This document shows positions 12,287-62,182 of a stretch of 64,000 nucleotides of DNA, one piece after another. Location of the stretch: assembly GCA_036567845.1 (NCBI GenBank), contig DATCTT010000027.1, forward strand, positions 11 to 64,010, in the 5' to 3' direction. A program made the translations under genes and the position numbers. Numbering within the stretch: the first letter of the stretch is position 1; each line of letters starts with the position of its first letter. The notes beneath the pieces are model-generated. The model had not been told where the DNA came from and did not search any database. It saw only the letters and a list, made by a program, of their open reading frames with translations. This stretch comes from Candidatus Ozemobacteraceae bacterium (GTDB taxonomy: Bacteria; Muiribacteriota; Ozemobacteria; Ozemobacterales; Ozemobacteraceae).

Positions 12287-12311
12287 CTGCGGAAAGGAAC
12301 CAGAGAAGACC

Positions 12312-22404: not shown

Positions 22405-22406
22405 CG

Positions 22407-23258
22407 TCAGTTCGTCCCGTCGATCTCGGTCAGGAGCGCGGAAAAACTGGCCGCATGCACATCGTGGAAGGGGTGGACGGCTTCGAGCCGGTCGGCGAGA
22501 TCCCCGACGGCCGTGATGGTTGCCCTGTTCGAGGCACTGAAACTGCCGGTGAGCCGGGCGCCGTTGACGGGGGAGAGGAAGGTCCAGGCCTCGCCCCGCC
22601 CGTCGAATCCATACACGAGATCGCTGAACGCCTGTTCCAGCGACAGGCCCGAGGTCGCCGCCCCGCCGATGAAGGCGGCATACAACTCGGGCCAGGTCGC
22701 GGTTTTCGCGTCGTTCGTGGTGAACGTGATCTGGTCGTAGATGTCGAGCCGGCCATTCTTGTTCGTGTCATACTTCTCGAGCAGCCGCTTCGCGGCGATC
22801 AGGGGCGGTATCAGCCCCCGGGTGAGCCGGTCGGTGCGGGATGGCGCCGGCACCGACTGCATCATGCGCGAAGCCCGTTCGAGCCGGTCGATGTCCGAGA
22901 TGGTCGTTGCGCACTGGAACCACAGCGCCGCCCGGTCATACGGGCCAACCCCGTTTTGCATCGTGTCGAGCACGGACAGCACCCGGAAGCCGGCGAGGCC
23001 GGCTTCGGATTCGGCCAGTCCCTGGACTACGGGGCCGGTCGCATTTCCGCGATTCACGAGCTTCTGGAAGATCTCGCGCGCGCCGGTATAATCGCCGGAG
23101 CCAAGCGCCAGATAAGCTTCGTCGACGAGCTCGTCGTCGGTGCGCCCGCTCATGGCCGTGTCCATGCCGTCAAACAGATTGCATCCCGTCAGGCCGAGCG
23201 CGACCCAGAGCATCAGGAATGCCCGGAGGATGCGCGCCCCTCTACCCATGCTGAACAT
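22407..23258 (-). CDS. Lipoprotein of unknown function, translationally adjacent to the OMP gene
   Basis: MFSMGRGARILRAFLMLWVALGLTGC with lipobox LTGC. The stop at 22407 is 2 nt from the OMP start at 22404. Confidence 0.55.
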   Translation of the reverse strand: MFSMGRGARILRAFLMLWVALGLTGCNLFDGMDTAMSGRTDDELVDEAYLALGSGDYTGAREIFQKLVNRGNATGPVVQGLAESEAGLAGFRVLSVLDTMQNGVGPYDRAALWFQCATTISDIDRLERASRMMQSVPAPSRTDRLTRGLIPPLIAAKRLLEKYDTNKNGRLDIYDQITFTTNDAKTATWPELYAAFIGGAATSGLSLEQAFSDLVYGFDGRGEAWTFLSPVNGARLTGSFSASNRATITAVGDLADRLEAVHPFHDVHAASFSALLTEIDGTN

Positions 23259-23414
23259 CGTGACTCCCGAAGTTGACGGATTCATACCGGATATCGGCAG
23301 ATCCCGGCAGCCCGTGAAGAGGGTTCCGCCCAATCCCCCGAAACTTTTTCCGTACACCTGTGGTATCTATGGGAGTAGAAGTCCTGGAATGACTGTCTGG
23401 AAGGAGCCATCGCC

Positions 23415-38191: not shown

Positions 38192-41100
38192 CTAAGCGGG
38201 CGGCTTTGCGCAAAGCGCGGCAAAGGCGCATGTGGAACAGGGTGCCTCGGCGGGGGGCTGCCAGGCGCGTTCGCCGCGGATCCGCGCCACGAGCTCCGTG
38301 GCTGACCGCTCGAAGGCCGGGAGGTCGGGATCGACGGGCTCGATGCGCACCGATGTCTCGGTCAGATAGGCCAGAGCCGCGGATGCGAAGGCGAGGGCGC
38401 CGCTCTTCCCGAACAGGCCCCGGCGGGCCGCAGCGAGATACAGAGCAAGCTGCCGGGCATAGACCGCGTGGGCCGCAGGTGAAAAAGCATGAGATTTATA
38501 ATCAATGATATATACTTCTCCGTCCCGTAGATCGATGCGGTCGGCAAACCCGCGCAGCAGGAACGGGCCATCCTGGTCTGACGTTCCTGTCACCTCGAGC
38601 CGGAGGTTCACCTCGGCCTCGAGATGTGCCGCATCTGTCGCCGCCAGGGGTGAGGCGAGATACGAGGCGAGCAGGGCTGCCGCGCGGTCCCTGCCCGCCG
38701 CCCCTTCCTCACCGTGAAGAGGGACCAGCCGGTCGAGCAGCCCGAACAGCCGGTCGCGTCGGACGTCGTCCGGGAGGGCGGACACGTTTCCCTCGTGGTA
38801 CAGGCGCAGGGTGCGATGAACGAGGTTGCCGACGGCCGGCCCGCGTCCGGACTCGGACGGACCCGCAAGGGGCGCGATATGCCGGCGCTGAAAAAAATAT
38901 CGCCGGGGACACTGCTCATACGCATCGAGATCCCCGAGCGAGTAGATCTCCTCACTCACTCCGCTTCCTGCCACCCGCCTGGGCCGGGACGCCTCCTCCC
39001 GGAGACGGAGAAAACGGCCGGTGAGAGCGGTGATCTGCGGGGTGAGATCGACTCCATCAGCCGGCTGGGACGGGAGAGGGGTGGCGGGGGCGGAGGAAGC
39101 CGTTCCTGCCGCAAGCCATCGCTCCGCGACAGTGGGCCACTCCGCGAGGGCGTCGACGGAGCCGAGGGTTTCATCCGCGCGAAGCATGCCGGCAAGCTCT
39201 CCGATGGGCTGGCCTGGTTTGTCGATATCCGTTTCCGAGCCGCTGATGACAAGAAGATCACGGGCGCGAGTGAGGGCGACATACAGCTTCCGGCGCTCTT
39301 CGGCGGAATTGGCGACCTGCTCCGCGTCGAAAACGGCCCGGATTTCGGCCTCCGGGCTGCCCTCACACTCTTTCCGATGGACCACGAGCCCCTGGTCGCG
39401 GGTCATGAACAGGCCCTGTTCGCGTTTGAACGTGCGCGTGTGGAGGTTCGGCAGAAAGACGACGGGGAACTCGAGCCCTTTCGATTTGTGAATGGTCAGG
39501 ATCTTGACGGCTTCGCCCTCCTCGAGACCGAGACCGGCCTCGTCCTCGTCGACCCCGGACTCGATCGTCCGGTCATGGTAGGCAAGGAAGTCGCGGAGGG
39601 TCGTGAAGACACCGTTGGCTTCGAACGCCCGGACGATACCCACGAATTTCGCGAGGTTGTTCTCGAGGCGGCGCCGGCGCAGATCATCCGTCTGGGCGGC
39701 CGCGTGCTCGAGGAACCCGGCCTGCTCGAGCACGGCATGGACGAGGTCGAGAATCCCCAGCGTGCCGCTCATTCCCTGAAGGCGGACGAACAGCCGGCGG
39801 AACGAGCGGACACGCTCCGGCAGGACGCTCTCGGGAAGGGCCAGCAGGTGGGCGAGGAGGCTGACGTGTTCTTCCCGCCTGTCATGGAACAGCGCCGACA
39901 GCTCCGCATCCGAAAGGCCATACTGGGGCCCGGTCAGGATCGTCGCCAGCGAGAGATCGTCGGTCGGCCGCACGAGAAGCCGGAGAAACGCGACAACGGC
40001 AGCGATCTCATGGCGCGCGTAGAATCCGAGGCCGCCGGCCATCACATACGGGATCCCGCGGACCAGCAGGGCGTCTTCGTAGGCGCGGGGAAGACGGTTG
40101 ACGGAGTGGACGATGATCGCGAAGTCTCCATACGCTGCCGGCCGTTTCCCCTGCCGGGTCTCGATGGCCAGGCCGCCGCGGACAAGAGTCTGGATGAGGT
40201 CGGCGATGGTTTCGGCCTCTTCGGAACTGCCGGGCGCCGCGGCAAGAAGACAGGCAATCGGTCTTGGTCTGGTCGAAGCGCCACGATCGGCTGTCTGAGG
40301 CGGTGGCGGATTTTCAATATTGCGGGAAATATATCTGTCGGCCAGAGTCAGGATTTCCTGAACGGACCGATAGTTCTGGTTCAGCCAGATCGTGCGGGTT
40401 GCGGGAAACGCATGGAAGGTGCGGATGTCGGCACCCTGGAACCGATAGATGCTCTGTTTCTCGTCGCCGACAACGGTGATGTGGCCTTCGCGGCCGTCGA
40501 CGAACGTCCGGATGATGCCGAACTGCTCCTGGTTGTTGTCCTGAAACTCGTCGATCAGGAAAACCCGTTGTGCCGGATCGCTGCCCGCGGCACGCTGGTC
40601 GGCGATCAGGGCCGAGCTGCGGAGGAGGATCTCGTCGAAATCGAGCAGGTGTCGTTCCCCGAGCTTCTGGAGATACCGGCTGTAGAATCGGAAAAACCAG
40701 ATCTGGACCCTCTTTTCGAGGGGAGAGGGCGGTGTACCGCGCCGGGCGAATCGCTCGTCGGTGAAACGCTGGAACCCGCCGGGTGAGAGGAGAAACCGCC
40801 GGACGTGGCCAAGGAGGCCTGGAAACAGGCTTGTGACGTGATGAGCCTGGTCGGGGCCGAACGCCTCGGGGCCCTCGAGCAGTGCATCGGCATGGGCCGC
40901 CCGGAACTCCTCGAGAAGATCGGCGAGAAGCAGGCGGCGGCCGCCTTCGGTCAGAACCGTGTCACCCCGGTCGATGCCGGCGCCGAACGGGTCGCGGCGA
41001 AGCAGATCGCCGAGGAAGGCGTGGAAGGTCGAGACCTGGAGATTGCGAAGCACTGAAGCGGTGAGGCCGCGTGCCGGATGCGCGAGCCGCTCCTTCATCT

Positions 41101-41302
41101 CCGCGGCGGCCTTACGGGTGTAGGTGATCGCGACCAGCTCCATCGGCAGGATTCCCTGGCGGAGCAGGGCCACGATGCGTCGTGTCAGGACCTCGGTCTT
41201 GCCAGAGCCCGCTCCGGCAGCGATTTTCAGAAATCCGGCAGACGGCTCGCGAACGGCATCCTGTTGCTCGGGGTTCAGCCCGGTAAGGAGGTCAGTCAGC
41301 AT
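38192..41302 (-). CDS. UvrD-like helicase plus C-terminal RecB-type PD-(D/E)xK nuclease with a 4-Cys (Fe-S) cluster; second subunit of an AdnAB/AddAB-type helicase-nuclease
   Basis: Walker A AGAGSGKT. Nuclease IIDYKSHAF. Cys ligands YEQCPRRYFF ... CSTCAFAALC. 1036 aa, overlapping the upstream paralog by 11 nt. Confidence 0.85.
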   Translation of the reverse strand: MLTDLLTGLNPEQQDAVREPSAGFLKIAAGAGSGKTEVLTRRIVALLRQGILPMELVAITYTRKAAAEMKERLAHPARGLTASVLRNLQVSTFHAFLGDLLRRDPFGAGIDRGDTVLTEGGRRLLLADLLEEFRAAHADALLEGPEAFGPDQAHHVTSLFPGLLGHVRRFLLSPGGFQRFTDERFARRGTPPSPLEKRVQIWFFRFYSRYLQKLGERHLLDFDEILLRSSALIADQRAAGSDPAQRVFLIDEFQDNNQEQFGIIRTFVDGREGHITVVGDEKQSIYRFQGADIRTFHAFPATRTIWLNQNYRSVQEILTLADRYISRNIENPPPPQTADRGASTRPRPIACLLAAAPGSSEEAETIADLIQTLVRGGLAIETRQGKRPAAYGDFAIIVHSVNRLPRAYEDALLVRGIPYVMAGGLGFYARHEIAAVVAFLRLLVRPTDDLSLATILTGPQYGLSDAELSALFHDRREEHVSLLAHLLALPESVLPERVRSFRRLFVRLQGMSGTLGILDLVHAVLEQAGFLEHAAAQTDDLRRRRLENNLAKFVGIVRAFEANGVFTTLRDFLAYHDRTIESGVDEDEAGLGLEEGEAVKILTIHKSKGLEFPVVFLPNLHTRTFKREQGLFMTRDQGLVVHRKECEGSPEAEIRAVFDAEQVANSAEERRKLYVALTRARDLLVISGSETDIDKPGQPIGELAGMLRADETLGSVDALAEWPTVAERWLAAGTASSAPATPLPSQPADGVDLTPQITALTGRFLRLREEASRPRRVAGSGVSEEIYSLGDLDAYEQCPRRYFFQRRHIAPLAGPSESGRGPAVGNLVHRTLRLYHEGNVSALPDDVRRDRLFGLLDRLVPLHGEEGAAGRDRAAALLASYLASPLAATDAAHLEAEVNLRLEVTGTSDQDGPFLLRGFADRIDLRDGEVYIIDYKSHAFSPAAHAVYARQLALYLAAARRGLFGKSGALAFASAALAYLTETSVRIEPVDPDLPAFERSATELVARIRGERAWQPPAEAPCSTCAFAALCAKPPA

Positions 41303-44300
41303 CGTCGGAAGCCTCCTGCGTGGAATCGGGTGTCGGGAGGCGGAGCTGGTCGAGCCGTTCCTGGCAGAATGGTTGGAATTCGCAGTGCTTTGTCGGTGAA
41401 CGGTTGATGCAGGACATTGCCGAGGCCGCCGGAGAAGGATGGCAGTCGAACACCCGTTCTGAAACGATCCTTTCCATGAGCCGCTCCAGGGTGTCGCTGA
41501 AGGTGGCGAACTGGTCGGGTGTGACCTGGACGGCCCATTCGGGGCCTGCGCCCAGTCCGAGCATCGCCGATTTCAAAAAACCCGGCTGGAAGCCATTGTA
41601 TTTCCTTTTATATAGATCATCCTTCGGATACACGGTGCCGGCACACACCCGTTCATGGCCCAGCTGGCGCGCGGCAAGAAGATAGAAGGGAAGTTGGATT
41701 TCGGATGGCGGGCCGGATTCCGGGAATGCCTCGCGCAGCATCGAGGCGGCCGACTTTGCCGAACCCGTCTTGTAGTCGATGATCCAGATCGTGCTGTCCG
41801 CATCCTCGAGCCACCGGTCGATCCGCCCTTTGCAGGGATATCCGCGGAACTCGAACCGGAACCCCGCCTCGACGCCGATGGTGCCGGTCGCCGGAATCTG
41901 GCCGTTGACGTAGACGGCTTCGCGATACCGGTTCAGAATTTCCCGGGCCTGGCCGTCATACTGCTTCCGCTGGAGCACGGGGAGCTGGCCGAGAAGTGGC
42001 ACACCATGGGACCTCCAGAGGGCTTCCAACTCATCAAATCTTGGCGATCGGCCGCCCGCGAAGGTTCCAGCCGGGTCATGCAGAGCCTGGAGGCACGCGT
42101 GGATCGCGTTTCCGAAGATGAGCGCGGGTTGCCGCTCGATCCGGTCGTCGCGCAGGCGGAGGACGTGACGGTAGAAGAACCGTCGGGGACAGTCGATGAA
42201 ATCGCGAAGCGCCTGGGCAGAAAACCGGAATCCCGCGGGCAGTTCGGCCGGACAGGGGGGGGCAATTCCGAATCGGCGTGGTTTCAGAAGATCCCTGTCT
42301 GCTTCATCCGTGTCGGAGATTGCGTGGACGGCTTCAGACAGGCCCTGCAGGCCGGACTCCAGGCTCAGGCGCTCCTCCGGGGACAACCGGGCCAGGTGGG
42401 TGCGGAGTTCGCCGATCGTCAGGATTCGCTGTTCATGCCAGTCACGGTGGGGGTGAAGACCGAGTTCGTCCAGGAACGGCGCCGGCAGGGCGGGGTCGGT
42501 TCCGATGCGGCGGGGCATCGTGAGGATCAGCCCTTCTTCGGCCCGCGTCAGGGCAACATACAGCAACCGGCGTTCCTCTTCGAGATGGTCGGCGTGATCG
42601 GCGGGGTAGGGGTTGAAGAAGCGGATCTCCCTGTCACTTGCGTCGATCGCTTTCTGCACCGCGGCCAGGCCGGCCGAGCCGATCAGGAGGTTCTCGCGGA
42701 GGCGGACGGGGAACTGGTCCTCGCAGAGTCCCGTCACGAACACCACGGGAAACTCGAGCCCTTTCGACTGGTGGACCGTCATCAGCCGCACCCCCGGCGC
42801 TGCCGGGGCCACGTCGGCTGCCGGCTCATCCTCCTGTTCGAGGGTCGATGCGTAATACGTGAGCCACTCATCGAAGCTCGGCATCAGATCAGCGGCGACG
42901 GGGGGGCGGCCAAACTGTTTTTCCCGGACGTCGCAGAAATCGTCAATCATGTTCCGGAACCGCATGACATGCCGTGCTCCGGGAGACGCCGGGTCGGCGA
43001 CGAGATGCGGAACGGCGAGTAGAAGCCGGGCGAATAGGGTGACGAGCGGAAGGCCGATTCCGTCATGCAGGAGGCGCAGGGTCTCGCGGAACGCGATGAG
43101 CCGGGTGACTGTGTCCGGGGTGGGAGGGACGAAACCGTCGGGAAGCGGTTCGTCAGGCGGGCGGTCGAGCCAGGCGTCGAGTGCGGTCTCGAGAGCCGCC
43201 CCGGGGGGAAGGGCGGCGAGATACTGCTGGACCCAGATGGGGTCGAGGCCAAAAACGGGGGAGGCGAAGGCCCGCCGCAGAGGTTGCTCTCGGGCTTCCT
43301 CCGGACCTGCCGTCGCCTGGAGCAGCGAGGCGAGCGCCGTCACCTCTTCGGACCGAAAAAATTTCATATCACCGGCTATATCAAAAGGGATATGCATTGC
43401 CCGGAGAGCCTCAGACAACAGATCGATCTGGTAATTGTTCCGGACCAGGATCGCGATTTCGCCGGGGGTGAAGCACCGATGGGTCCCGTACGTGAGCAGT
43501 GAGGCGATGCGGCGGGCGATCATGCGCGCCTCGTCGAGCTCGTCACGGGCCTCGAGCAGCTCGACGAAGCCCTGACGGCTGCTGCGCGCCACAAGGCCGC
43601 CCGGGCTTCCGCCGGAAGGGGGACTTTTGGGGGCAAGCTCCTGCGACCAGTGCAGGTTGGAGGCCAGGGCGAGAATGTCGGCGGCGCTGCGGTAGTTGCC
43701 GCCGAGTGAAAACAGACGGGCTTTGAACTCGCGTCGGAAGGCGCTGCGCGAACCCATCATACCTGGATCCGCCCCGCGGAACCGGTAGATGCTCTGCAGT
43801 GGGTCGCCGATCACCGCGATGCGGGGGGGCGGCACCTCGTCCGGGCTTTTCAGCAGCCGGAGAAGGAGATACTGGGCCGGGTCGGTGTCCTGAAACTCGT
43901 CGACGAGGACGACCCGGAACCGGTCGCGATACCGGGCGGCCGTGTCGGGATCGCGGAGAGCCTGGATCGAGAACGAGATCAGATCGCGGAAATCGAGGTA
44001 GCCGGTCCGGACCCGCTCCTCCTCATACCGCCGGTACAGATGCAACAGCTCGTCGAGACGCTGCCTGGCCATGGAGGGCGGTGGATGGGCGGTGATGGCC
44101 TGTTGGAGCTGGTCGGGAGTCACGAGATTCGATTTGAGCAGCGAGATGAACGTGAGCACTTCGAGCTGGAAACCGCGTTTGGTGAGCACCCGGCCGAACA
44201 CCGGGAAGGTTTCCGGAGTCAGTCGTGCACAGATGCCCGCCATCAGCAGGGCTTCCTTGAAGCCCGTGAGCAGTCGGAAATCCGGCCTGATGCCAACCAG

Positions 44301-44603
44301 GTGATACCGCTCGCGAAGCAGGCGGGCACAGAACGAGTGGAACGTTGAGATCCAGCACTCGTCGTAGCTGTGGGGGTGGTATTCCATGACCCGCCCCCGG
44401 AGTTCGCGTGCGGCCTTTTCCGAGAAGGTCAGGGCAAGAATCTCGCGGAGCCTGGTGCCTTCAGAGAGCAGGCGGCCGATCAGCACTGCAATGGTCCGGG
44501 TCTTGCCGGTGCCGGGGCCGGCGACGATCATTGTGGGCCCCTTGAACCCGCGGATGATGGCCTTCTGTTCGTCGTTCAGTCGGTCGAAGTCTTCGGAGAG
44601 CAC
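41292..44603 (-). CDS. UvrD-like helicase plus C-terminal RecB-type nuclease with a 4-Cys cluster; first subunit of an AdnAB/AddAB-type helicase-nuclease
   Basis: Walker A AGPGTGKT, DEFQDTD (motif II). Nuclease IIDYKTGSAKS. Cys ligands FIDCPRRFFY ... CINRSPTKHCEFQPFC. 1103 aa. Confidence 0.85.
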   Translation of the reverse strand: MLSEDFDRLNDEQKAIIRGFKGPTMIVAGPGTGKTRTIAVLIGRLLSEGTRLREILALTFSEKAARELRGRVMEYHPHSYDECWISTFHSFCARLLRERYHLVGIRPDFRLLTGFKEALLMAGICARLTPETFPVFGRVLTKRGFQLEVLTFISLLKSNLVTPDQLQQAITAHPPPSMARQRLDELLHLYRRYEEERVRTGYLDFRDLISFSIQALRDPDTAARYRDRFRVVLVDEFQDTDPAQYLLLRLLKSPDEVPPPRIAVIGDPLQSIYRFRGADPGMMGSRSAFRREFKARLFSLGGNYRSAADILALASNLHWSQELAPKSPPSGGSPGGLVARSSRQGFVELLEARDELDEARMIARRIASLLTYGTHRCFTPGEIAILVRNNYQIDLLSEALRAMHIPFDIAGDMKFFRSEEVTALASLLQATAGPEEAREQPLRRAFASPVFGLDPIWVQQYLAALPPGAALETALDAWLDRPPDEPLPDGFVPPTPDTVTRLIAFRETLRLLHDGIGLPLVTLFARLLLAVPHLVADPASPGARHVMRFRNMIDDFCDVREKQFGRPPVAADLMPSFDEWLTYYASTLEQEDEPAADVAPAAPGVRLMTVHQSKGLEFPVVFVTGLCEDQFPVRLRENLLIGSAGLAAVQKAIDASDREIRFFNPYPADHADHLEEERRLLYVALTRAEEGLILTMPRRIGTDPALPAPFLDELGLHPHRDWHEQRILTIGELRTHLARLSPEERLSLESGLQGLSEAVHAISDTDEADRDLLKPRRFGIAPPCPAELPAGFRFSAQALRDFIDCPRRFFYRHVLRLRDDRIERQPALIFGNAIHACLQALHDPAGTFAGGRSPRFDELEALWRSHGVPLLGQLPVLQRKQYDGQAREILNRYREAVYVNGQIPATGTIGVEAGFRFEFRGYPCKGRIDRWLEDADSTIWIIDYKTGSAKSAASMLREAFPESGPPSEIQLPFYLLAARQLGHERVCAGTVYPKDDLYKRKYNGFQPGFLKSAMLGLGAGPEWAVQVTPDQFATFSDTLERLMERIVSERVFDCHPSPAASAMSCINRSPTKHCEFQPFCQERLDQLRLPTPDSTQEASDDAD

Positions 44604-44616: not shown

Positions 44617-44940
44617 TCAGGGGGTTCGGGGATAGACGAGATCGAACTGGGGGGAGCCGGTCACCGCCCAGAGAATCACGAAATGGTGGATGACATCTGA
44701 GAGGGCCAGTGCCCCGCCCAGAACTGCGAGGTGCCGCTTCCAGACGGGATCTCTCACGAAGGCCGACACGAGCAGGATCAACAGGCCGATGAGGCCGTGA
44801 TGGATGCGGTAGCCGAAGGTGAGCCGGCCGACGCTCGCAGCCGTGTCCCGGGCCGCCTCGAGACCGAAGCCGAACCGCAGGGCGGCCGTCACGGCCTCGA
44901 TTGCCGCGGCTAGAAGGAAAATCGGTTTCCAGGAGCTCAA
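44617..44940 (-). CDS. Small hydrophobic membrane protein (about 3 TM helices) upstream of the helicase-nuclease pair
   Basis: PIFLLAAAIEAVTAAL, HGLIGLLILLVSAF, LAVLGGALALSDVIHHFVILWAV. It overlaps the VWA gene stop by 4 nt. Confidence 0.4.
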   Translation of the reverse strand: MSSWKPIFLLAAAIEAVTAALRFGFGLEAARDTAASVGRLTFGYRIHHGLIGLLILLVSAFVRDPVWKRHLAVLGGALALSDVIHHFVILWAVTGSPQFDLVYPRTP

Positions 44941-46562
44941 TTGTCGCTGTCCGTGTCGGGAAGATCGGGCGTTCCGGGAAGATCCGTTCCGGCGTCCGCC
45001 GACCCTTCCCCGGATGTTGGCACTTGATACTCATGACTCAGGCTTTTTTCCAGCCCTTCGAGCATCTGATTCGTCCCGGCGGCATTCTCGTCGGCAGCCT
45101 GCTGCTGATCCTCCTGCATCCGGCGTTTCGAGGCGTTCAGCTCGTCGATGTTCCGGTTCACGCCGTCGATGTGGGCGTCATGGCGCTGCTGGTTCTGATC
45201 GTGCAGCTCGCGCATCTCGCGATTGAGCTGATCGGTTCGGGCGTTCTGGTCGCGTTTGAAATCCTGCCGCCATTGCTGATGAGCGTCATGAGAGGCTTTC
45301 AGGGTGGCGTTTAATTCCGCGATATGGGCTTTTTCCTGTTCCGATGCTCCGGGACGGGGCTGGATGGGTTTGTATTCCTGCCACACGGGCATCGCCTCCG
45401 TCGCGATATCGGTCCAGGTGGCAAGCTGATTCCGGTCCACATGGGCGATATCCGGCGATGTGCCCGTGTCGGGGGCCTCGACGCGGCCGAGCCGGACGTC
45501 GTGGCGGATGGTCCTGGTTCCCAGGCCCGTGGCTGCGGATGCGGCATCCCCTTCCCGGATGGCGATGCCAGGGATGCCCCGCCCCGGCTTGTCCGATGCG
45601 CCGGGCTGGCGTTCGACCCGGACCGGATCGAGGGGGGCGACGTAGGCGCCCGTGCCCTGGTCTTTGCGGCCTTGGTGCTCGCTGACCACCGTCAGCTCGC
45701 GGCGCGAGCCGTCCCGCTCGGGGGCGGGTGTTGTATAGCTTAGTTTATATCTTCGCTCGAGCATCATTCGGGAGCTGATCTTCTGGAAAATGCCGGCCAG
45801 CTGTTCGGCCGACGGGGCCCGCAGCAAAGCTCCTTTGGTCGTGCGGGCGAGCTGCTCGAGGAAACTTTCGTCAATGCTTGTACCGAGGGCCACGCAGATG
45901 ACGCGGATGCCGTTCTTGCTGGCGTGGGCGATCACCTCATCGGCTTTCTTCGTCGAAAAGCCGGGTTTGCCCTGCGGACTTTCGTCGCGACCATCCGTGA
46001 GCAGCACGATGGTCTTGCGGTCATCGGTGCCGGCAGCCGAGCGCAGCTGCTCGCAGGCCTGATACAGGGCGTCGAATAGGGCCGTGCCTCCCCATGGGCG
46101 CATTTTCGCGATGCCGCCGAGCAGGGGTTCCTGTTCGCGCGTGAACTCAGTCACGAGATCGACGTCGCTTGCGAAGGTGATCAGGGAAATGCGCGCCGGC
46201 ATGTTCATCCCTTTCACGAACATCGCCGCCGACTCCTTCACCGTCGTGACCACAGGTTCCATGCTCGAGGAGCGGTCGAGAAGAAGGGCAATGAACGGCT
46301 CCCGGCGGACGAGATCGATGGTGAAACTCGTGATCGGCGTTTCGCGTTCGTGCAGGGTGAAGGCATCATGGAGGAGTTCTGTGGCATCCGGGGTGAACAC
46401 CCGCATCATCACCCGGATCTTCGGGTAATCGATGGGTGACACGGTTTCGATCACCGAGGAAAATCCTGGATCGGCCGCGTGGGCCGGCGATCGGCCCGTC
46501 AGGGCGAACGTGAGCAGGAGCAGGACCACCAGCCATACATGGCCGGGACGACGGGTGCGCAT
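44937..46562 (-). CDS. Secreted von Willebrand factor A (VWA) domain protein with a C-terminal coiled-coil/Gln-rich tail
   Basis: Signal peptide ...LTFALTGRSPAHA. MIDAS motif LLLDRSSSM, VLLTDGRD. C-terminal QQWRQDFKRDQNARTDQLNREMRELHDQNQQRHD. Confidence 0.75.
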   Translation of the reverse strand: MRTRRPGHVWLVVLLLLTFALTGRSPAHAADPGFSSVIETVSPIDYPKIRVMMRVFTPDATELLHDAFTLHERETPITSFTIDLVRREPFIALLLDRSSSMEPVVTTVKESAAMFVKGMNMPARISLITFASDVDLVTEFTREQEPLLGGIAKMRPWGGTALFDALYQACEQLRSAAGTDDRKTIVLLTDGRDESPQGKPGFSTKKADEVIAHASKNGIRVICVALGTSIDESFLEQLARTTKGALLRAPSAEQLAGIFQKISSRMMLERRYKLSYTTPAPERDGSRRELTVVSEHQGRKDQGTGAYVAPLDPVRVERQPGASDKPGRGIPGIAIREGDAASAATGLGTRTIRHDVRLGRVEAPDTGTSPDIAHVDRNQLATWTDIATEAMPVWQEYKPIQPRPGASEQEKAHIAELNATLKASHDAHQQWRQDFKRDQNARTDQLNREMRELHDQNQQRHDAHIDGVNRNIDELNASKRRMQEDQQQAADENAAGTNQMLEGLEKSLSHEYQVPTSGEGSADAGTDLPGTPDLPDTDSDN

Positions 46563-52275: not shown

Positions 52276-54432
52276 ATGCCCGTTGGAAGCCACAAAGACG
52301 CATTCAAGGCCCATCAGCTGGTCAAAAAACTCGTTGCCAAGGACGGGGCAACTCCGCTGCCGACGCTTGCCGCAGAGATCCTCATGGATTTCGTCAAGAG
52401 TCAGCGGCAGATCAACCAGCGGGAGTCGGCGACGCACCTCCCGACGGATCAGAATGTGTATGACCAGGAGAAGCTGAAGGCTGCTCTCGAAGCCGTGGGC
52501 AGCTTGTGCGGCCAGTGCGAGGAAGCTCATAACGACGCCTGTTTCGTCAATCAGGCACGCCGCGTCCTGATCGCTGCCAGGACCGGCGTCGATCTGGGCC
52601 AGGCCTTCGACGGCAAGAAGAGCCTCGATGAGCTGGTGCGGGAGGCCGAGCGTCTCGCTGCCGAACGGGCGGCCGCCCCCCCGGAGACAGCCGCTGCGAG
52701 CGCCGGGACCACTCCCGTTTCCGGAGAGACGGACGCGGCTGCGACCGGAAGGCTGCGTCAGGAGCTTGCTTCCCTTCAGGAAAGGGAAGTGTTCCGCAGC
52801 ACGCTGATCGACGAGATCGTCGATACCATCGGCAAGGTGTCCGCGGGCAACTATGCTGCGAAAATGCCGGTGCATGAAGATGAGCAGCTCGGCAAGCTCG
52901 CGACGTCGTTCAATCTCATGCTTGATGCGATGAACGCGACGATGTCCCACCTCGATCACCTCGTGAACGCTCGGAACGCCGAGCTGAAGCAGATCATGAA
53001 CACCGTGCCGCTGGGCCTGCTCTCGCTGAACGCCGAGCTCCGGGTGAATCCGGAATACTCCCGGACCGCCGCCCTGATCTTCGGCGTGGACGAACTGCGG
53101 GGCCGCGATTACCCAGAACTGCTCGGACTTACGCCGCGCCGCCAGGAAGAGCGGAATGCGCTGAAGGATTATCTCGACATCCTTCTGATGGGCATCGACT
53201 GTCCCGACGCCGATCGCCTCAACCCCTTCGCCGAAATCCTGCTGCCCCGGGGTGTCTGGGTGCGTCTCCGTTATCATCTCGTGCAGACCGAGTCCGGGCA
53301 GGGGAACCTCCTCGTTGTCGTGGAGGACGTCACCGAGACGAAGAAGCTGGAAGCCCGGGTTGAAGCGACTCAGCGCGAAAGTGCCCAGATCAAGGCGATT
53401 GCCGAGGCTCCCGATCTGTTCCGCGACGTTATCGCCGACAATCAGAAGATTCTCGATCAGACCATCACCCTGCTTGATGGGAATGGCCCGGCATCCTCTC
53501 AGGAACGGATCGATGCCATGTTTCGGGGTGTCCATACGGTCAAGGGGGTGGCCGGAAGCTTTGGCATGTCCGAAGTCGGAAAGCAGGCGGGAATTCTCGA
53601 AAATGCCCTGGCCCGGGCGCGCGATCTCGGCTCCCTGACCACGGAACGGACGGAGGAGATCCGCCGCGAGCTCGGCCTTCTCGGCGAGGCGATGGGGGAC
53701 GTGAAAAAACTGGCGAAGCTCATTTTAGGGGATGATTCCCTGACCGGCGGCCCGGCTCTGAAGGTGTCCCTCGAGCAGCTGCAGGAACTCGAGCGCGAGA
53801 TGCGGGACGCGGCGGTGGACGAAGGGGTCCGCGCGCGTATGCTCGGCAAGATCCGTGACCTGCGGCTCGTCCCGGCGAAGAAAGCCCTGGAGCGCACGAT
53901 CCGTCTCGTTCCGGGGCTGATTTCCCGACTCAACAAGCAGGTGTCCTTCCGCCTCGAGGGCGAGGACGTTCCGTTGCCGGTTGAACTTGCGCAGAACCTG
54001 AACGGTCCTTTGATCCACCTTATCCGGAACGCGTTCGACCACGGTGTCGAGGACGAGGAACTGCGGCGCGGTGCCGGAAAGCCGGAGCAGGCGTCGGTCG
54101 CTCTCACCATTCACCGGCGGGAGCGCTGGATCGAAGTGGCCGTATCAGATGACGGCAAGGGGCTCGACCCTGAGGTGCTCCGGGCCAGCGCCATCCGCAA
54201 GGAGCTTCTCTCCCCGGAGGAGGCCGGGAATTTGTCGGCGGAAGCGTGTCTCAACCTGATCTTCCTTCCCGGCTTCTCGACGGCAGCTTCGGTCACCGAG
54301 ATCTCCGGGCGGGGTGTTGGGATGGATGTCGTCCAGACTGAAATCGCAAACATGGGCGGGCGGATCACCATTGATTCGACACCGGGAAAAGGGTCCCGGT
54401 TCACCCTGCACGTTCCGATAGCCTGCTCCTGA
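52276..54432 (+). CDS. Cytoplasmic CheA-like histidine kinase: Cys-containing N-domain - HAMP - sensor region - HPt - HATPase_c; no CheW-like P5 domain
   Basis: HAMP IDEIVDTIGKVSAGNYAAKMPVHEDEQLGKLATSFNLMLDAM. HPt FRGVHTVKGVAGSFG. HATPase N-box IRNAFDHGVED, G-boxes DDGKGLD and SGRGVGMDVV. N-terminal CGQCEEAHNDAC. No TM segments. Confidence 0.8.
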   Translation: MPVGSHKDAFKAHQLVKKLVAKDGATPLPTLAAEILMDFVKSQRQINQRESATHLPTDQNVYDQEKLKAALEAVGSLCGQCEEAHNDACFVNQARRVLIAARTGVDLGQAFDGKKSLDELVREAERLAAERAAAPPETAAASAGTTPVSGETDAAATGRLRQELASLQEREVFRSTLIDEIVDTIGKVSAGNYAAKMPVHEDEQLGKLATSFNLMLDAMNATMSHLDHLVNARNAELKQIMNTVPLGLLSLNAELRVNPEYSRTAALIFGVDELRGRDYPELLGLTPRRQEERNALKDYLDILLMGIDCPDADRLNPFAEILLPRGVWVRLRYHLVQTESGQGNLLVVVEDVTETKKLEARVEATQRESAQIKAIAEAPDLFRDVIADNQKILDQTITLLDGNGPASSQERIDAMFRGVHTVKGVAGSFGMSEVGKQAGILENALARARDLGSLTTERTEEIRRELGLLGEAMGDVKKLAKLILGDDSLTGGPALKVSLEQLQELEREMRDAAVDEGVRARMLGKIRDLRLVPAKKALERTIRLVPGLISRLNKQVSFRLEGEDVPLPVELAQNLNGPLIHLIRNAFDHGVEDEELRRGAGKPEQASVALTIHRRERWIEVAVSDDGKGLDPEVLRASAIRKELLSPEEAGNLSAEACLNLIFLPGFSTAASVTEISGRGVGMDVVQTEIANMGGRITIDSTPGKGSRFTLHVPIACS

Positions 54433-54493: not shown

Positions 54494-56371
54494 TTACAGA
54501 TCCATTTCCCAGGACACGGCCAGGCGCCGGCCGGGCTCGCCATATCCGTAGATCCTCTGGGAACGCGTGTTGGCGATGTTCAGCAGGGCCAGCCGGAACG
54601 TGCCACCGTGGAACCGGCTCAGATAGCCGATATCCGTGCGATCCGTCGGTGAGACGGAACGGGTGTTTCCGGCATCGTCCCAGCTCGCCCCCCACCGGGC
54701 ATACCGCGCAAACACCTCGCCGTTTCCGGCAGGATGACGCAGAGTCAGGGCTCCGGCATGCCCCGGTACGCGGGGCAGGGTGCAGCCTGAGCTCAGGATC
54801 CGGGCCCGGGGCGTGCGGGAATACTCGAACTCCATGCGGCAGCGGCCGCTGGACATCCGCACGTCAAGTTCGTGGCCGGTGATTTCGGCGGTTTCCAGGT
54901 TCGCCGCCTTGATCCCCCAGGCATAGGCCGGGTCCGTCGTGGCGACGGTTCCGATGAGATTGTCGGCGCGTGTCCGGTAGCTGCGCACCTCGATGATGCC
55001 ATCGGTACCTGCCCGCTGGGTAAGCGCGAGCGAGAGAGTGCGCCCTGTCTCGGGGGCCAGGTGCTCGTCGCCGTAGTTCGGGTAGAACCGTTCATTGAGC
55101 GACGGACGCCGGAAGGAAGTTCCCCAGGCGGCTTCCAGACTGCGTTTGCCCTGCTCCCGGGAAAGGGCGAGCTTGCCCGTCGCGGCGGTGTCGCCGGGGT
55201 TTGTATAACGATCGATACGTCCGATCGACCGGAGCTTCCAGCCGGCTGCCGGGCTCCAGGAAACCCCGCCCCGAAGCGCATCATCTGCCTCATTCCGCTC
55301 GAGGATGCCGTCGTTCGATGCGTCCGTTTCCTGATGTGAAACGCCCAGGTCGATCTCGCCGCGCGACAGATACCAGAACCGGTCGATCGCCTGCTGGTGC
55401 GTGAGAGAGTGCATGTCATACCCGTTCCAGGGATCTGTCGGATCATCCCCGGCAAGAACCGCGTCACGCCGGCCGGCCGTGTACTGCCACTCCCCGTCCG
55501 GAAGGGGCCGCGCGATGTGCAGATTCATCGTCGATTCCGACCGGTGCTGGATGAAGTCGGGATCGTCGACAGGGGCTGAAGTGATCGGGGAAAACGTGTC
55601 CAGGGCCGTGTCCGACGAACGCCAGCCGAGAAGGAATCGGACGGCAGTGCCGTTGGTCGATCGGCTCTGGATGCCGATCTGCAGGCGCTCCTGCTCGAAC
55701 GGATCCGTTTCGGCATTGCCCTGCCGTCCGTCGGCAGCCGACCAGCCCTGAGTCCGGAAGGTCATCCCGGAAACCCCCAGAGTGGCATCCCCAAGCGCCA
55801 ATGCCGCGTTCAGCTCGCGGCCGTTTCCCCCAACTCCGTCTGAAAACAGGCGAATACTCGAAGTGGCCGGAATGGCGGTTCGGAGATGGAGGACCCCCCC
55901 GATGGCGTTGCTGCCCCACCAGGATGCGCCTGAACCGCGGTACACCTCGACGGAATCGAGGAGCCCCGGGTCGATGTCGCCCAGGTCGGGATTGCCCGTG
56001 AAGGGGTCGTTCACCGGCATGCCGTCACGCAGAACGAGCACGCGCGCGCCGGTGAAGCCTCCCAGCATCGGACTGGCGAGCCGCCCCGGCCCGCCCTGGG
56101 GCGGAGTCACGAGCACGCCGCCCCCCAGAGCCTCGGGGCCGGTCGTCGGTAGAAATCTGCCGATATCCTCCGCCCCGGCACGGGAGACGGCATCGCCGAC
56201 GAGCTCGCACGGCGGCTTCCACGCCGGTGCCGTCACCGTGACCGTTGGAAGCTGCACGACCGGCTGGGAAGCTGTTACGGCGGGCAGACCGGTGGTCGGG
56301 TGGACCAGGAATGCCAACATCGGCAGCAGAAAACGGGAAAAGCGGGAAATGAAACGATGGAAAACGAGCAT
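54494..56371 (-). CDS. TonB-dependent receptor-like outer-membrane protein (plug domain clear; start uncertain; atypical C-terminal residue)
   Basis: Plug motifs RVLVLRDGMPVNDPFTG and EVYRGSGASWWGSNAIGGVLHL. Candidate starts at 56476, 56425 and 56371 (GAGGTG RBS before 56371, then a signal-like MLVFHRFISRFSRFLLPMLAFLV). It ends ...SWEMDL rather than an aromatic residue. Confidence 0.65.
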   Translation of the reverse strand: MLVFHRFISRFSRFLLPMLAFLVHPTTGLPAVTASQPVVQLPTVTVTAPAWKPPCELVGDAVSRAGAEDIGRFLPTTGPEALGGGVLVTPPQGGPGRLASPMLGGFTGARVLVLRDGMPVNDPFTGNPDLGDIDPGLLDSVEVYRGSGASWWGSNAIGGVLHLRTAIPATSSIRLFSDGVGGNGRELNAALALGDATLGVSGMTFRTQGWSAADGRQGNAETDPFEQERLQIGIQSRSTNGTAVRFLLGWRSSDTALDTFSPITSAPVDDPDFIQHRSESTMNLHIARPLPDGEWQYTAGRRDAVLAGDDPTDPWNGYDMHSLTHQQAIDRFWYLSRGEIDLGVSHQETDASNDGILERNEADDALRGGVSWSPAAGWKLRSIGRIDRYTNPGDTAATGKLALSREQGKRSLEAAWGTSFRRPSLNERFYPNYGDEHLAPETGRTLSLALTQRAGTDGIIEVRSYRTRADNLIGTVATTDPAYAWGIKAANLETAEITGHELDVRMSSGRCRMEFEYSRTPRARILSSGCTLPRVPGHAGALTLRHPAGNGEVFARYARWGASWDDAGNTRSVSPTDRTDIGYLSRFHGGTFRLALLNIANTRSQRIYGYGEPGRRLAVSWEMDL

Positions 56372-56487
56372 GGGGCCGCGCCACCTCTGAAAAAAATACC
56401 GCGCTCCCCGGGCCGGAGACGCCATGCGTCGTCTGTTCGGCACGATCTCCCGATCCGCGAGGAGTCGCGTGCTCATCCGACAGGTAT

Positions 56488-56650
56488 TCCGGCTCCCGGA
56501 TCATCCTCCCGCCGGCCCTTCCCACCCTTGCGGGTAGTGGCTTGCCGGCGTTTGTCCCCGATTACGGCGACGGGCTCGCGCAGGTGTTTCACCTGCTTCC
56601 CTGCTGGCCTGCGGTCAGGCCATGGCGATGAGGCCCTCTGGATACCACAA
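56488..56650 (-). ncRNA. Candidate cobalamin (B12) riboswitch in the leader of the TonB-dependent receptor gene
   Basis: The minus-strand leader reads ...GGGAAgcAGGTGAAAcACCTGcgcgagcccgtcgccGTAAtcgg...gcaaGCCACTacccgcaagGGTGGGAAGGccggcgggaggatgatCCGGGAGCCGGaa. This matches the conserved GGGAA/GGTGAAA/GTAA core and the CCACT...GGGAAG plus B12-box-like elements of E. coli btuB. Confidence 0.5.
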
Positions 56651-56728
56651 CCGGCCCCTCCGTGCAAGAACCCGTTCTGTGCCGGAGACCCCCTGTGGTA
56701 GGATGGATCGGTCGGAAGGGAGGGAAGT

Positions 56729-58055
56729 CGTGAGCGGCCAGGCCGATGACGCCATGCATGCGGGGACGGTGATGCCCGTTCAGAACGATGCCCTGCTGCC
56801 CGAGGTGCGTCGAGAGATCAACGCCACCCTGCGGCCGGCATTCCTGGTCGGGGCGCTGTTTGGCATCTTCGCCGGAGCCTTCATGCTGATCATCCATTGG
56901 GTCGGCCTCATGCCCGATATGGCCATTCCGGCGCTGTGGGCATTCGTGTGCGGGATCACGGTGCTTGGCCTGTATCTGCTGGCCAGGCACGATGCCATTC
57001 CTGCCGTCCGGCCGTGGATCGTGGTGCTGCCGCTGGTTTCTCTGCCGACGATCATTTTCGTGGTTTCCTGGTTGATCCTCCCGGGTGGCACCGCCACCTA
57101 CCTGACGGGACCGCCCTCCTATCTGTATTTCTTTCTCGTCGTGCTGACGGGGTTCTGGATGCAGGCGCGTGTTTCCATCGGGGCAAGTATCTTTGCCGCA
57201 GCGCAGTTCATCGTCGCCTACCAGTTCGCCCGGGAGCATCTGCAGCATATTTCTGGCCCCGATGCGCTGTTCCTGCAGGATCTGAAGGACCCGGTCCTGT
57301 GGGGCTTCAAGGCTGTCATGCTGGTGCTGACCGGGATCGCGGTTGGCGTGTTGTCGCGCTCGGCCCGCCGGCTGATCGGTCGGATGATCGACAAGGAGCG
57401 GGAGCGGGCCTCGCTCGACCGGCTGTTCGGCCAGTATGTCAGCCCGGCCGTGCGCGACCGGCTGATGACCTCTGAGGCTGTCCGGGGCGAGATGCGCGAT
57501 GTCGCGGTCCTTTTCTGCGATATCCGCTCGTTCACCACGATGTGCGAGGGCATGTCGCCGGCTGCCGTCGTCGAGCATCTCAACCGGTATCTCGATGAGA
57601 TGGTCGCCTGCATCCAGGCGGAGGGGGGCGTCATCGACAAGTTCATCGGGGATGCGATCATGGCCACCTTCGGCGGGGTCGCGCCGCTCGAGGCGCCTGC
57701 CGCTTCGGCCGTGAAGGCTGCCCTGATGATGCAGAAGGAACTGGTTGTCCTCCGCTCCGACTGGACGCTCCAGAATCTTCCGCTTCTCCGGTCGGGAATC
57801 GGCATCCATTACGGCCCGGTTCTGCTCGGCCCAATCGGCAGCGAACAGCGTCGCGAGTTCACGGTTATCGGCGACACCGTGAACACCGCTTCCCGGCTGG
57901 AAACACTGACAAAAGATCACGCCTGCTCGATCATCTTTTCTGATGCCGTTTTTGAGGCTTTGTCCCCCGATCTTCGGCAGGGATTTACCGAGCTGGGGAC
58001 GGTGCCGGTCAAGGGGCGAACCGCGCCTGTCCGGATTTTCGGCAACAGGGATTGA
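56729..58055 (+). CDS. Membrane-anchored class III adenylate/guanylate cyclase (6-TM N-domain plus CYTH-less cyclase homology domain)
   Basis: Cyclase motifs VLFCDIRSFT, KFIGDAIMATFG and GDTVNTASRLE. The N-terminal about 200 aa have 6 hydrophobic helices. GTG at 56729 after GGAAGGGAGGGA; alternative ATG starts lie downstream. Confidence 0.8.
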
Positions 58056-60313: not shown

Positions 60314-62182
60314 TCAGTCGTTCTTGCGAGAGATGACCGTCGCGAGCCCTTCGGGGTGCGTCGAGGCTTCCAGCTCCCGGACGATGGCGCTGTCGCCGTT
60401 GATCTTCCCCTTCAGGACCGGCAGATGCGTCTCCCCGCCGCGGGTGACGCGCAGCGTGAAGTCGGGCTCGCAGGGGAGGGTTTTGATGCCGTCGAGATCG
60501 AGGCGGAACGGCTGGATCAGCTCATTGCGCCGCGAGATCAGCCGCTCGACGGCCACCTTCTGGGCGAACGACGGCCAGCCGCTTTCGGCAAAACACCGCT
60601 CGAGATCGGCGCGGCTGAGCTTCGCGATGCGCAGGGCCATCCAGCGGGCGTCAGCCCAGGAGCAGTCCTTCCATGCCCGCGGCACGTACAGGGGGCGCAT
60701 GACGAAGTTGATGGTTCCGAGGCGGGTCCGCACAAACGAGGGCTCGAACGAGTTCAGCTCACCGGATGGTTTCAACCCGCCGAGGGTGCAGCCGAGGTCG
60801 CTCTGGAACTCGACGGTGCGGTCGAACTGGCGGGTTTTGAGGTTGTAGACGAGGCCGACGCGCGCGTTGTCGTCCTTCATGTCCTTGTTCTTGATCCAGG
60901 CGTTGAACACGATCGAGCCGCGGGTGACCCGGTCGGTCTCGGCTCCGGCCGTGCTGAGCGCAGCGCCGCCAAGCCGCTTGATCGCGGGGTTATACAGCGA
61001 AAGCTGGCACTCTTTGAACTTCACGAAGGCCGCGCCGACATACTTGGGGTCGATCGATTCCCGTTCTGCCATCTGCTTGTCGACGATCCCGTGGCCCAGG
61101 ATGGTATTGCCGTTCTTCACGAGGTTGCCGTCGAGCAGATACCGGTCGGCGTGAAACTGGAACTTCGAGTTCAGCAGCATCTCGGACAGGCGGCTGAAGG
61201 AGTGGACGGCATCTGGCCCGGTCTTGTCGGGCGGAGTGAGGATCAGCAACGACTCGCCGGGGCCCGAGTAGAACTTGAGATCCTCGAACGAGGCGCCCAG
61301 ATCGATAGCCAGCCGCGTCATCGCGACATCGGTGTGGACCTCGTCGCCCCACTTCAGTTTCCAGGTCAGGCCATACCGATCCTTCACCGTGATCTTCGGC
61401 GAGGTGGCATCCTCCTTGAGCTCGTCATAGAAGAGGATACGCCGGGCATACCCGAGGTCGAACCGGGCGAGCTTTTTCTCGCAGGCCCGGATCAGCGACA
61501 CCTGCTCGTTCACGAAGTCCTGGAAATTGTTGCCGGGTGCTTTCCCGCTCAGGGCCGGGTGGTCCGGTGCGGGCTGCAGGCGGGAGATCTCGACGGGGGA
61601 AAGCCGGGAAAGCTCCTCGCGCGAGACGGGGGTGGTGCTTCCGGCCTTGAACAGCCGCGCCGCTTCGCGTTTCGCGCCGAGTGGCCCGATTGGCTGCTCG
61701 GGGGCGATTCCCTCGGGGACGGACATGGCCAGGCTGCCGCCGAGCACGTTGCTGAACATGCGGAATCGTCTGCCGAGCTTGCCGAGAGGCGACTCTTCGG
61801 GGGCTTGCGCCATGTCGGCCAACAGGGCGTAATGGAGCCGCTGGAGGCGGATGAACTCGTGCGCCGCATCCCCGCTTCCCTGCGGGGTTTCCATGGCGGC
61901 GAGAAGCGCCTGCGCATCGGCAACCAGCTTCGCGTATGCGACGGCGGAGGCGTTCTTCGCCTGCTTCTCGGGCTTGTCGGGGTATTTTGCACGGAGCGCC
62001 TTCATCACTTTCGCGTGTTCTCCCGCGACGCGGACGGCGAACGCCTTCACGTTCGCTGCCGAGTAGGACAGGACGGGGTAATCCTTCACAGCATCCTGCA
62101 CGGCCCGGGCCGGCAGCGGGACGGCCGTCGGAGCGGCGCATGCGAGCGCCAGGACGACGAGAAGGGAAGATCGACGGGTCAT
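60314..62182 (-). CDS. Secreted hypothetical protein (622 aa), family unassigned
   Basis: Signal peptide MTRRSSLLVVLALACAAPTAVPLPARA. Uniform coding composition and no recognised catalytic motif. A convergent terminator-less junction with the M42 gene. Confidence 0.6.
   Translation of the reverse strand: MTRRSSLLVVLALACAAPTAVPLPARAVQDAVKDYPVLSYSAANVKAFAVRVAGEHAKVMKALRAKYPDKPEKQAKNASAVAYAKLVADAQALLAAMETPQGSGDAAHEFIRLQRLHYALLADMAQAPEESPLGKLGRRFRMFSNVLGGSLAMSVPEGIAPEQPIGPLGAKREAARLFKAGSTTPVSREELSRLSPVEISRLQPAPDHPALSGKAPGNNFQDFVNEQVSLIRACEKKLARFDLGYARRILFYDELKEDATSPKITVKDRYGLTWKLKWGDEVHTDVAMTRLAIDLGASFEDLKFYSGPGESLLILTPPDKTGPDAVHSFSRLSEMLLNSKFQFHADRYLLDGNLVKNGNTILGHGIVDKQMAERESIDPKYVGAAFVKFKECQLSLYNPAIKRLGGAALSTAGAETDRVTRGSIVFNAWIKNKDMKDDNARVGLVYNLKTRQFDRTVEFQSDLGCTLGGLKPSGELNSFEPSFVRTRLGTINFVMRPLYVPRAWKDCSWADARWMALRIAKLSRADLERCFAESGWPSFAQKVAVERLISRRNELIQPFRLDLDGIKTLPCEPDFTLRVTRGGETHLPVLKGKINGDSAIVRELEASTHPEGLATVISRKND

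Follow-up and report, generated by a model that had tools for sequence, protein, structure and literature searches.

The 64-kb stretch of Candidatus Ozemobacteraceae DNA analyzed here (hereafter 'the window') carries on its minus strand a cobalamin riboswitch in the leader of a gene for a TonB-dependent receptor, and we are all but certain that the element is genuine and controls this gene (56371..54494). A cmscan search of the whole window against Rfam 15 returned a single family above its gathering score, RF00174 (Cobalamin riboswitch), matched at 56644..56462 (minus strand) with 76.4 bits (E 4.7e-17) over the full length of the model (positions 1-189 of 189). Membership in the family is defined by its curated gathering score of 31.5 bits; the match scores more than twice that value, which is far beyond chance, and lies on the same strand as the receptor gene, 91 nucleotides (nt) upstream of its ATG. 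Taking aptamer, gene context and downstream leader together, we regard a B12-repressed translational OFF switch of a BtuB-like receptor, built on a class-I-type aptamer, as very probably the best explanation overall. The elements of the aptamer and the gene it precedes are as follows.

56462..56644, minus strand: Cobalamin riboswitch aptamer, full-length RF00174 match.
56627..56632, minus strand: P1 5′ strand CUCAUC, pairing perfectly with GAUGAG (56477-56472), with 6 of 6 pairs kept in five leaders.
56472..56477, minus strand: P1 3′ strand GAUGAG.
56605..56622, minus strand: P2 hairpin UGGCCUG-ACCG-CAGGCCA, seen in minimum free energy (MFE) folds.
56580..56603, minus strand: P3 5′ strand CAGG, GAA junction and P4/L4 hairpin, GCAGGUGAAACACCUGC, matching the model consensus.
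56603-56600 with 56484-56481, minus strand: P3 helix, CAGG with CCUG.
56596-56580, minus strand: P4.
56601-56597, minus strand: conserved motif GGGAA.
56593-56587, minus strand: conserved motif GGUGAAA.
56567..56579, minus strand: P5/L5 hairpin GCGA-GCCCG-UCGC, invariant in five leaders.
56575-56571, minus strand: L5 loop GCCCG, the usual kissing-loop partner, invariant.
56565-56562, minus strand: conserved motif GUAA.
56510..56550, minus strand: peripheral (P6-extension) domain, a CGCCGGC/GCCGGCG helix around the GCCACU...GGGAAGG hairpin (56541-56517).
56541-56536, minus strand: conserved motif GCCACU.
56523-56517, minus strand: conserved motif GGGAAGG.
56499-56489, minus strand: motif CCGGGAGCCGG.
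56478..56495, minus strand: B12 box GAGCCGGAAUACCUGUCG, which includes the P3 3′ strand CCUG (56484-56481) and is aligned to the model consensus GAGCCAGGAGACCuGCC.
54494..56371, minus strand: TonB-dependent receptor, BtuB-like, monocistronic, 625 amino acids (aa), with Plug and TonB_dep_Rec_b-barrel domains.

An earlier note on this DNA had proposed a cobalamin riboswitch upstream of a TonB-dependent receptor from a series of motifs on the minus strand, and had named a covariance-model score below the gathering threshold as the result that would overturn the proposal. The score of 76.4 against 31.5 bits came out on the side of the riboswitch, and inspection of the sequence found every motif of the series in the order described. 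The range given there, 56488-56650, proved too short: as the aptamer reaches 56462, 26 nt past the lower coordinate, that range omits the P1 3′ strand GAUGAG and half of the B12 box. Likewise, the B12-box-like CCGGGAGCCGG (56499-56489) is present, but it only overlaps the 5′ end of the true B12 box GAGCCGGAAUACCUGUCG.

The covariance-model score is the main evidence for the aptamer, and counts of paired bases in related leaders support it without amounting to independent proof. Mapping the Infernal structure straight onto the sequence gave an unusable energy and 12 non-canonical pairs, most of which fall in P1 or the peripheral domain; the helices were therefore re-drawn by hand. Across five related leaders—few in number and closely related—the 41 hand-assigned pairs of the seven helices were paired in 94.1% of cases, compared to 33-40% in the same leaders when the 3′ partners were slid by one to three columns. 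The conserved junction and the canonical helices P1-P6 are found in the five leaders. Two of the 41 pairs show a compensatory change, both from G-C to A-U, one of them in P2 (in the leaders of three relatives, L002, L034 and L055) and the other in the peripheral helix. With respect to primary sequence, the GCAGGUGAAACACCUGC segment (56580..56603) carries the conserved GGGAA and GGUGAAA core, and the cmscan alignment places the peripheral domain in agreement with the model consensus GCCACUG...GGGAAGG. The B12 box, which in this family lies at the 3′ side of the aptamer and follows a consensus of about rAGYCMGgAgaCCkGCcd, is present here with one core mismatch to that consensus (G for A/C). Given the peripheral extension and RF00174 as the best match within its clan, the aptamer is probably of class I, the adenosylcobalamin (AdoCbl) type.

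The gene downstream encodes a protein of BtuB size and plug-in-barrel architecture, with both the Plug (PF07715) and the barrel (PF00593) domain matched. Its N-terminus, read from the sequence, looks like a signal peptide, with a TonB-box-like TVTVTA behind it. The receptor gene is monocistronic, and the next gene (52276-54432, plus strand, encoding a HAMP-Hpt-HATPase CheA-like kinase) is convergent.

The pairing of receptor and riboswitch recurs among relatives. RF00174 matches lie upstream, on the same strand, at 25 of 33 genome loci and at 14 of the 20 scanned metagenome loci encoding receptor relatives, and several of the loci that have no match are cut at a contig end. Together, these loci span Riflebacteria, Bacteroidota, Alphaproteobacteria, Acidobacteriota, Gemmatimonadota and other groups. 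The closest receptor relatives reside in metagenome-assembled genomes of Candidatus Ozemobacteraceae and Riflebacteria, with identities of 91% (L001 and L035), 75-77% (L002, L034 and L055) and ~33% (a second Riflebacteria clade), and an identical protein is encoded on a Logan contig of run SRR2059973; the locus is also present in run SRR22387828. The family is small, with 13 clusters at E<=1e-20 in a protein search, and three of the homologues have been named 'vitamin B12 transporter' by JGI.

Several loci in this set show arrangements of their own. In the second Riflebacteria clade (L003, L004, L006, L037 and L038), a compact aptamer sits ~180 nt upstream of the receptor start, matches positions 46-168 of the RF00174 model only (60-61 bits), lacks P2 and has GUCCG as L5 and a P1 of GUGGCCC/GGGUCAC, drawn by eye. 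Its leader has the segment from the Shine-Dalgarno (SD) sequence to the AUG, GAGGUGGCG...CCCAUGCUC, in common with the window, and the 3′ strand of its P1, GGGUCA (again by eye), could pair with UGACCC directly 5′ of the AUG (L004, about 2950-3010). The region between aptamer and start is different and much shorter there, making a helix-by-helix alignment with the window impossible. At a Kapabacteria locus with a related plug domain (L025, 2751-2848), a thiamine pyrophosphate (TPP) riboswitch (RF00059, 81.6 bits) takes the place of the cobalamin riboswitch, which suggests that this broad family also includes a TonB-dependent receptor related to thiamine. Finally, one metagenome contig (L041) carries two full-length RF00174 matches (78-247 and 2216-2386) on the same strand, 2 kb apart, which implies two consecutive B12-regulated transcription units.

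The boundaries of the leader depend on two gene starts, both of which are probably mis-called when the longest open reading frames (ORFs) are followed. The longest receptor ORF extends to 56476 and thereby into the aptamer, while the true start, as judged by the conserved SD sequence, is ATG 56371. The SD sequence GAGGUG (56387-56382) and this ATG are invariant in five related leaders, and the GAGGTG previously suggested as a candidate ribosome-binding site (RBS) before 56371 is real. On the other side lies a divergent gene:

56730..58055, plus strand: membrane class III nucleotidyl cyclase (Guanylate_cyc domain, E 9e-23), a divergent neighbor that provides context and lies outside the switch.

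The domain match bears out the assignment of this neighbor as a membrane class III cyclase. Its probable start is GTG 56730, with GGGAGGG ahead of it. The alternative start at ATG 56622, which gives the longest ORF and lies inside the aptamer, was ruled out by the length of the homologues (450-459 aa; 78-80% identity, likewise placed divergently in L002, L034, L055 and L056) and by the strong SD sequence at GTG 56730. With this start, the intergenic region measures ~358 nt (56372-56729) and the cyclase gene has no overlap with the riboswitch. Naive ORF calling would hide this 358-nt intergenic region, as ORFs from both sides enter the riboswitch; relatedly, the public gene call of one homologue (P0002, 596 aa) begins 29 codons too late. 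The combination of divergent cyclase and riboswitch-controlled receptor is kept in all close relatives (L001, L002, L034, L035, L055 and L056), and the genes downstream of the receptor vary, with the CheA-like kinase in the window and ThiS and ThiF in L055.

A consensus scan of 56200-57000 called neither a promoter nor a terminator; the putative promoter described here, like the terminator-like element discussed below, was instead read by eye and by conservation.

56662..56667, minus strand: putative -35 hexamer TTGCAC, proposed from conservation.
56639..56644, minus strand: putative -10 hexamer TATCCA, preceded by TGn, likewise proposed from conservation.

In the window and in L001, L002, L034 and L055, a -35-like TTG(C/T)(A/C)(C/A) precedes the -10-like hexamer, always with 17 nt between them. 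The hexamers read TTGTCA...TAATCA / TATTCA in L002, L034 and L055, and they and their spacing are kept while spacer and flanks have diverged. If these hexamers are the promoter, transcription would probably begin where P1 does, near 56634-56632, and the first ~10 nt of the Rfam match would belong to the promoter and not to the transcript.

The aptamer between the P1 strands occupies 56632-56472 and is followed by an expression platform of 100 nt (56471-56372). Leaders of receptors that are 75-91% identical hardly differ in this platform but have diverged in the promoter-proximal DNA. Such near-invariance next to receptors of only 75% identity indicates that most platform bases are constrained, as expected for alternative structures. 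Indeed, two mutually exclusive folds compete for the same segment, GGGGAGCGCGG (56409-56399).

56400..56469, minus strand: fold A, a long imperfect hairpin that pairs GGGGAGCGCGG with upstream CGCGACUCCUCG (-36 kcal/mol), the MFE structure of the platform.
56372..56409, minus strand: fold B, an SD-sequestering hairpin GGGGAGCGCGG-UAUUUUUUUC-AGAGGUGGCGCGGCCCC (-17.9 kcal/mol), whose last base adjoins the AUG.
56390..56396, minus strand: U7 tract, which pairs with the SD sequence in fold B or forms a terminator-type U tract 3 nt after fold A.
56441..56459, minus strand: candidate P13/L13, CGCGG-AUCGGGAGA-UCGUG or an inner GAUC-GGGA-GAUC, proposed from its appearance in an alternative fold.

Fold A, which would serve as an anti-sequestor or as the stem of a terminator, is also the RNAalifold consensus of four leaders, and the variable positions fall in its apical loop or are compatible with it. 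In fold B, GGGGAGCGCGG pairs with downstream CGCGGCCCC, the U7 tract pairs with and buries AGAGGUG, and the upstream arm, now free, forms small hairpins. In the window, the total energies of the two folds lie 0.3 kcal/mol apart (A, -43.2; B, -42.9 kcal/mol), and the order is reversed in L001. L002 retains the outer stems of fold B, with one G-U pair and in a shifted register. As to whether the RBS is sequestered, a question raised in the earlier note, the SD sequence is buried in fold B and would be left open by the near-isoenergetic fold A. The U7 tract reads U4CU3 in L034 and L055 and is degenerate in L002 (UGUUACUU; also ACUGUUACUUC).

For E. coli btuB, a ligand-dependent L5-L13 kissing loop stabilizes P13 and thereby promotes the RBS hairpin; the L5 consensus is UCCCG, and the GCCCG found here as L5 also occurs in A. 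halodurans cobT (PMC10327014). Two CGGG sequences downstream of the aptamer are candidate partners for L5, at 56452-56449 (favored) and at 56410-56407; the former is complementary to the CCCG of L5 over 4 base pairs (bp), with a predicted duplex energy of -6.9 kcal/mol. As the platform reproduces the btuB scheme (PMC10327014), we favor a translational OFF switch, and the lack of a canonical terminator in the consensus scan, together with a U tract that is not conserved in L002, supports the translational reading. Transcription would start near 56633, and the aptamer would bind its presumed ligand, adenosylcobalamin or another corrinoid. Without ligand, GGGGAGCGCGG would pair with upstream CGCGACUCCUCG (56469-56400), leaving the SD sequence GAGGUG and AUG 56371 open, and the receptor would be made. 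With ligand, L5 GCCCG would kiss CGGG (56452-56449) and steady the small P13 hairpin, which lies inside the 5′ arm of fold A; holding P13 would disfavor fold A, so that GGGGAGCGCGG would pair with downstream CGCGGCCCC and the resulting hairpin would bury the SD sequence up to the AUG, switching translation of the importer off. Repression of the receptor upon ligand binding is, in our estimation, highly likely; that it proceeds by this particular combination of kissing loop and SD sequestration is a proposition to which we would give even odds.

Several observations weigh against the proposed switch. The candidate L13 of L002 reads AGGG instead of CGGG, its inner P13 stem GAUC/GAUC is broken, and ACAGGGAGA at this position weakens the L5:L13 duplex to -5.2 kcal/mol. 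Genome, metagenome, protein and contig searches yielded only four distinct platform variants, with no compensatory pairs in the platform. The computed cost of opening the SD sequence and AUG (18.3 kcal/mol for the free leader, 13.9 with the aptamer closed and 11.0 with P13 held) does not run in the expected direction; this modeling was dropped as evidence either way, as the energies of pseudoknot and ligand lie outside the model. When the RNA is folded at equilibrium as far as the U tract, P1 and fold A both come out with p>0.9, and fold A, the proposed ON state, is followed by U7 only 3 nt later, a terminator-like arrangement that is odd for an ON state. In addition, the P1 3′ strand plus two bases, GGAUGAGCA (56478-56470), can pair with the start region UGCUCGUUU (56370-56362) over 9 bp, of which three are G-U; the platform MFE structure contains this pairing. 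The favored model makes no use of this match, which is probably due to chance but may form a long-range helix that affects initiation. Lastly, the receptor itself scores far below the cut-offs for BtuB equivalogs, a point taken up below.

The terminator-like arrangement is the basis of a transcriptional (or dual) switch, in which fold A and U7 would act as an intrinsic terminator in the presence of ligand and bases of the aptamer or P13 would form an antiterminator in its absence. A -36 kcal/mol hairpin followed by GUA-UUUUUUU in a genome of 62% GC fits this description. L034 and L055 have UUUUCUUU one base past the stem, RNAalifold picks the fold A hairpin in all four leader variants, the second Riflebacteria clade has a hairpin and then CAUUUUA before its SD sequence, and P. 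megaterium metE provides a demonstrated case of transcriptional control by P13, antiterminator and terminator (PMC10327014). However, the consensus scan called no terminator, and the U tract starts 3 nt beyond the stem and, in L002, is degenerate (ACUGUUACUUC). Moreover, when the nascent transcript as far as the U tract was folded without constraints, no antiterminator was found and the hairpin formed with p>=0.93 together with P1, which would mean constitutive termination. A terminator would also leave the conserved, isoenergetic SD hairpin, which shares the 3′ arm of the terminator, without a role. On balance, we consider a transcriptional or dual switch the main rival, but rather unlikely.

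A different doubt concerns the cargo: the riboswitch could be genuine and the receptor could still import another corrinoid or precursor (such as cobinamide), or some unrelated substrate that has come under the control of B12. The best-scoring NCBIfam families for the receptor are TIGR01779 ('TonB-dependent vitamin B12 receptor'), with 101.7 bits against an equivalog cut-off of 599.7, and NF007926, with 58.9 against 836; since both cut-offs are missed, we call the receptor BtuB-like and not a BtuB equivalog, and the identity of its substrate leans mainly on the riboswitch association. Its best sequence match in the PDB is E. coli BtuB (E 3e-11), to which it is 17-19% identical. An AlphaFold model built on 12 homologues (predicted local distance difference test score, pLDDT, 70.7; predicted template-modeling score, pTM, 0.73) has BtuB as its closest fold (2gsk_A, E 1.1e-23, target-normalized template-modeling score 0.80; root-mean-square deviation to 1nqh, 4.6 Å), with other TonB-dependent transporters such as PfeA almost equal to BtuB by the E-value of the fold search. 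A broader cargo would also accord with the many corrinoids to which corrinoid riboswitches are reported to respond (PMC9600662). Against a cargo other than B12 stand three independent methods (NCBIfam, PDB sequence and fold) that all place BtuB on top, a receptor size that is that of BtuB, the smallest class of TonB-dependent transporters, and the broad phylogenetic tie of the receptor family to RF00174, an accepted signature of corrinoid transporters. The claim that the receptor is a BtuB-type corrinoid importer thus holds as far as the best matches go, but not at equivalog level. We infer a BtuB-like corrinoid importer, from the RF00174 association of its relatives and from BtuB as the best match by three methods, and deem a different cargo improbable.

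An activating switch, in which the open P1 3′ strand GGAUGAGCA would block the start region UGCUCGUUU without ligand and ligand-stabilized P1 would free the AUG, could draw on the 9-bp complementarity in the platform MFE structure, the analogous GGGUCA/UGACCC of the second clade, the lower opening cost of SD sequence and AUG in the 'bound' approximations and the precedent of A. halodurans cobT, whose corrinoid riboswitch is an activating one (PMC10327014), but is very improbable, given that three of the nine pairs are G-U, that the sequences are invariant and hence show no covariation, that short GC-rich matches arise by chance in roughly 10% of leaders (a rough estimate, not computed), that an importer induced by its own abundant cargo contradicts the known homeostatic logic of btuB regulation, and that the conserved SD hairpin and anti-sequestor pair would go unexplained. 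More generally, there is a slim chance that the platform departs from the btuB paradigm, either as a second natural activating corrinoid riboswitch or through a 70-nt hairpin that doubles as terminator and anti-sequestor. If true, an activating or dual platform would represent a new expression-platform logic in a candidate phylum.

To our knowledge, no riboswitch from this candidate phylum has been studied so far, and a literature search pairing cobalamin with Riflebacteria found nothing pertinent. Annotation aside, the riboswitch is of the textbook kind. Its class, the link of that class to btuB-type genes and the general way in which it works have long been established, and here it sits where such riboswitches are most classically found, ahead of a btuB-type receptor gene; only the details of how it would shut the gene off stand apart. 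What is new is the host lineage (an uncultivated Riflebacteria family), the divergent small receptor family and a platform of its own. The riboswitch lets a generic 'TonB-dependent receptor' of Candidatus Ozemobacteraceae be annotated as a corrinoid importer, which indicates that the organism scavenges B12-type cofactors and possesses an outer membrane and a TonB system.

Elsewhere in the 64-kb window, no other B12 genes (cob, cbi, btuFCD) were found, and scans for tRNAs and tandem repeats came back empty. Adjacent genes for ATP-citrate lyase subunits (10715-14156, plus strand; Citrate_bind and ATP-grasp, then CoA-ligase and Citrate_synt) hint at a reductive tricarboxylic acid cycle or a cytosolic supply of acetyl-CoA. 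Tandem genes at 38192-44603 (minus strand) encode a pair of AddAB/RecBCD-like UvrD-helicase and PD-(D/E)XK nuclease proteins of 1036 and 1103 aa; immediately upstream, at 44617-46562 (minus strand), are a small ORF and a gene for a VWA-domain protein. Five long ORFs have no Pfam match at E<=1e-5 (1737-3422, plus strand; 14278-17001, 18753-20150, 21292-23357 and 60314-62182, all minus strand) and show gene-like codon bias, with a GC content at third codon positions of 0.76-0.86.

Compared to known systems, the aptamer aligns with RF00174 (clan CL00101; class I/AdoCbl type with P6 extension), with which it shares the GGGAA junction, the GGUGAAA L4, the C-rich L5, GCCACU...GGGAAGG, the B12 box, helices P1-P6 and a position in the 5′ leader of a B12-related gene. 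It differs from the family in having GCCACUA for GCCACUG and GAGCCGG for GAGCCAGG in the B12 box, in a short P1 (six perfect pairs) whose register is 2 nt off the Infernal alignment, and in an idiosyncratic peripheral domain, whose helices contain many non-canonical pairs in that alignment. The receptor, in turn, differs from E. coli BtuB (PDB 1NQE/1NQH/2GSK) by its 17-19% identity, its scores below the equivalog thresholds, a model of moderate confidence (pLDDT 70.7) and a family of 13 clusters, and shares with it the plug and β-barrel, a length of about 590 mature residues, the best sequence and fold match, and the TonB-box-like TVTVTA near the N-terminus. Relative to the E. coli btuB leader, the platform of the window is unrelated in sequence, includes a U7 tract, has its candidate P13 13-17 nt past P1 and inside a 70-nt hairpin, and belongs to an uncultivated host (Ca. 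Ozemobacteraceae, Riflebacteria) in which regulation is predicted. Common to both leaders are a receptor of the TonB-dependent B12 type, a monocistronic gene, an RBS hairpin adjoining the start codon and, as proposed for the window, a putative L5/L13 kissing loop that would choose between anti-sequestor and RBS sequestor (PMC10327014).

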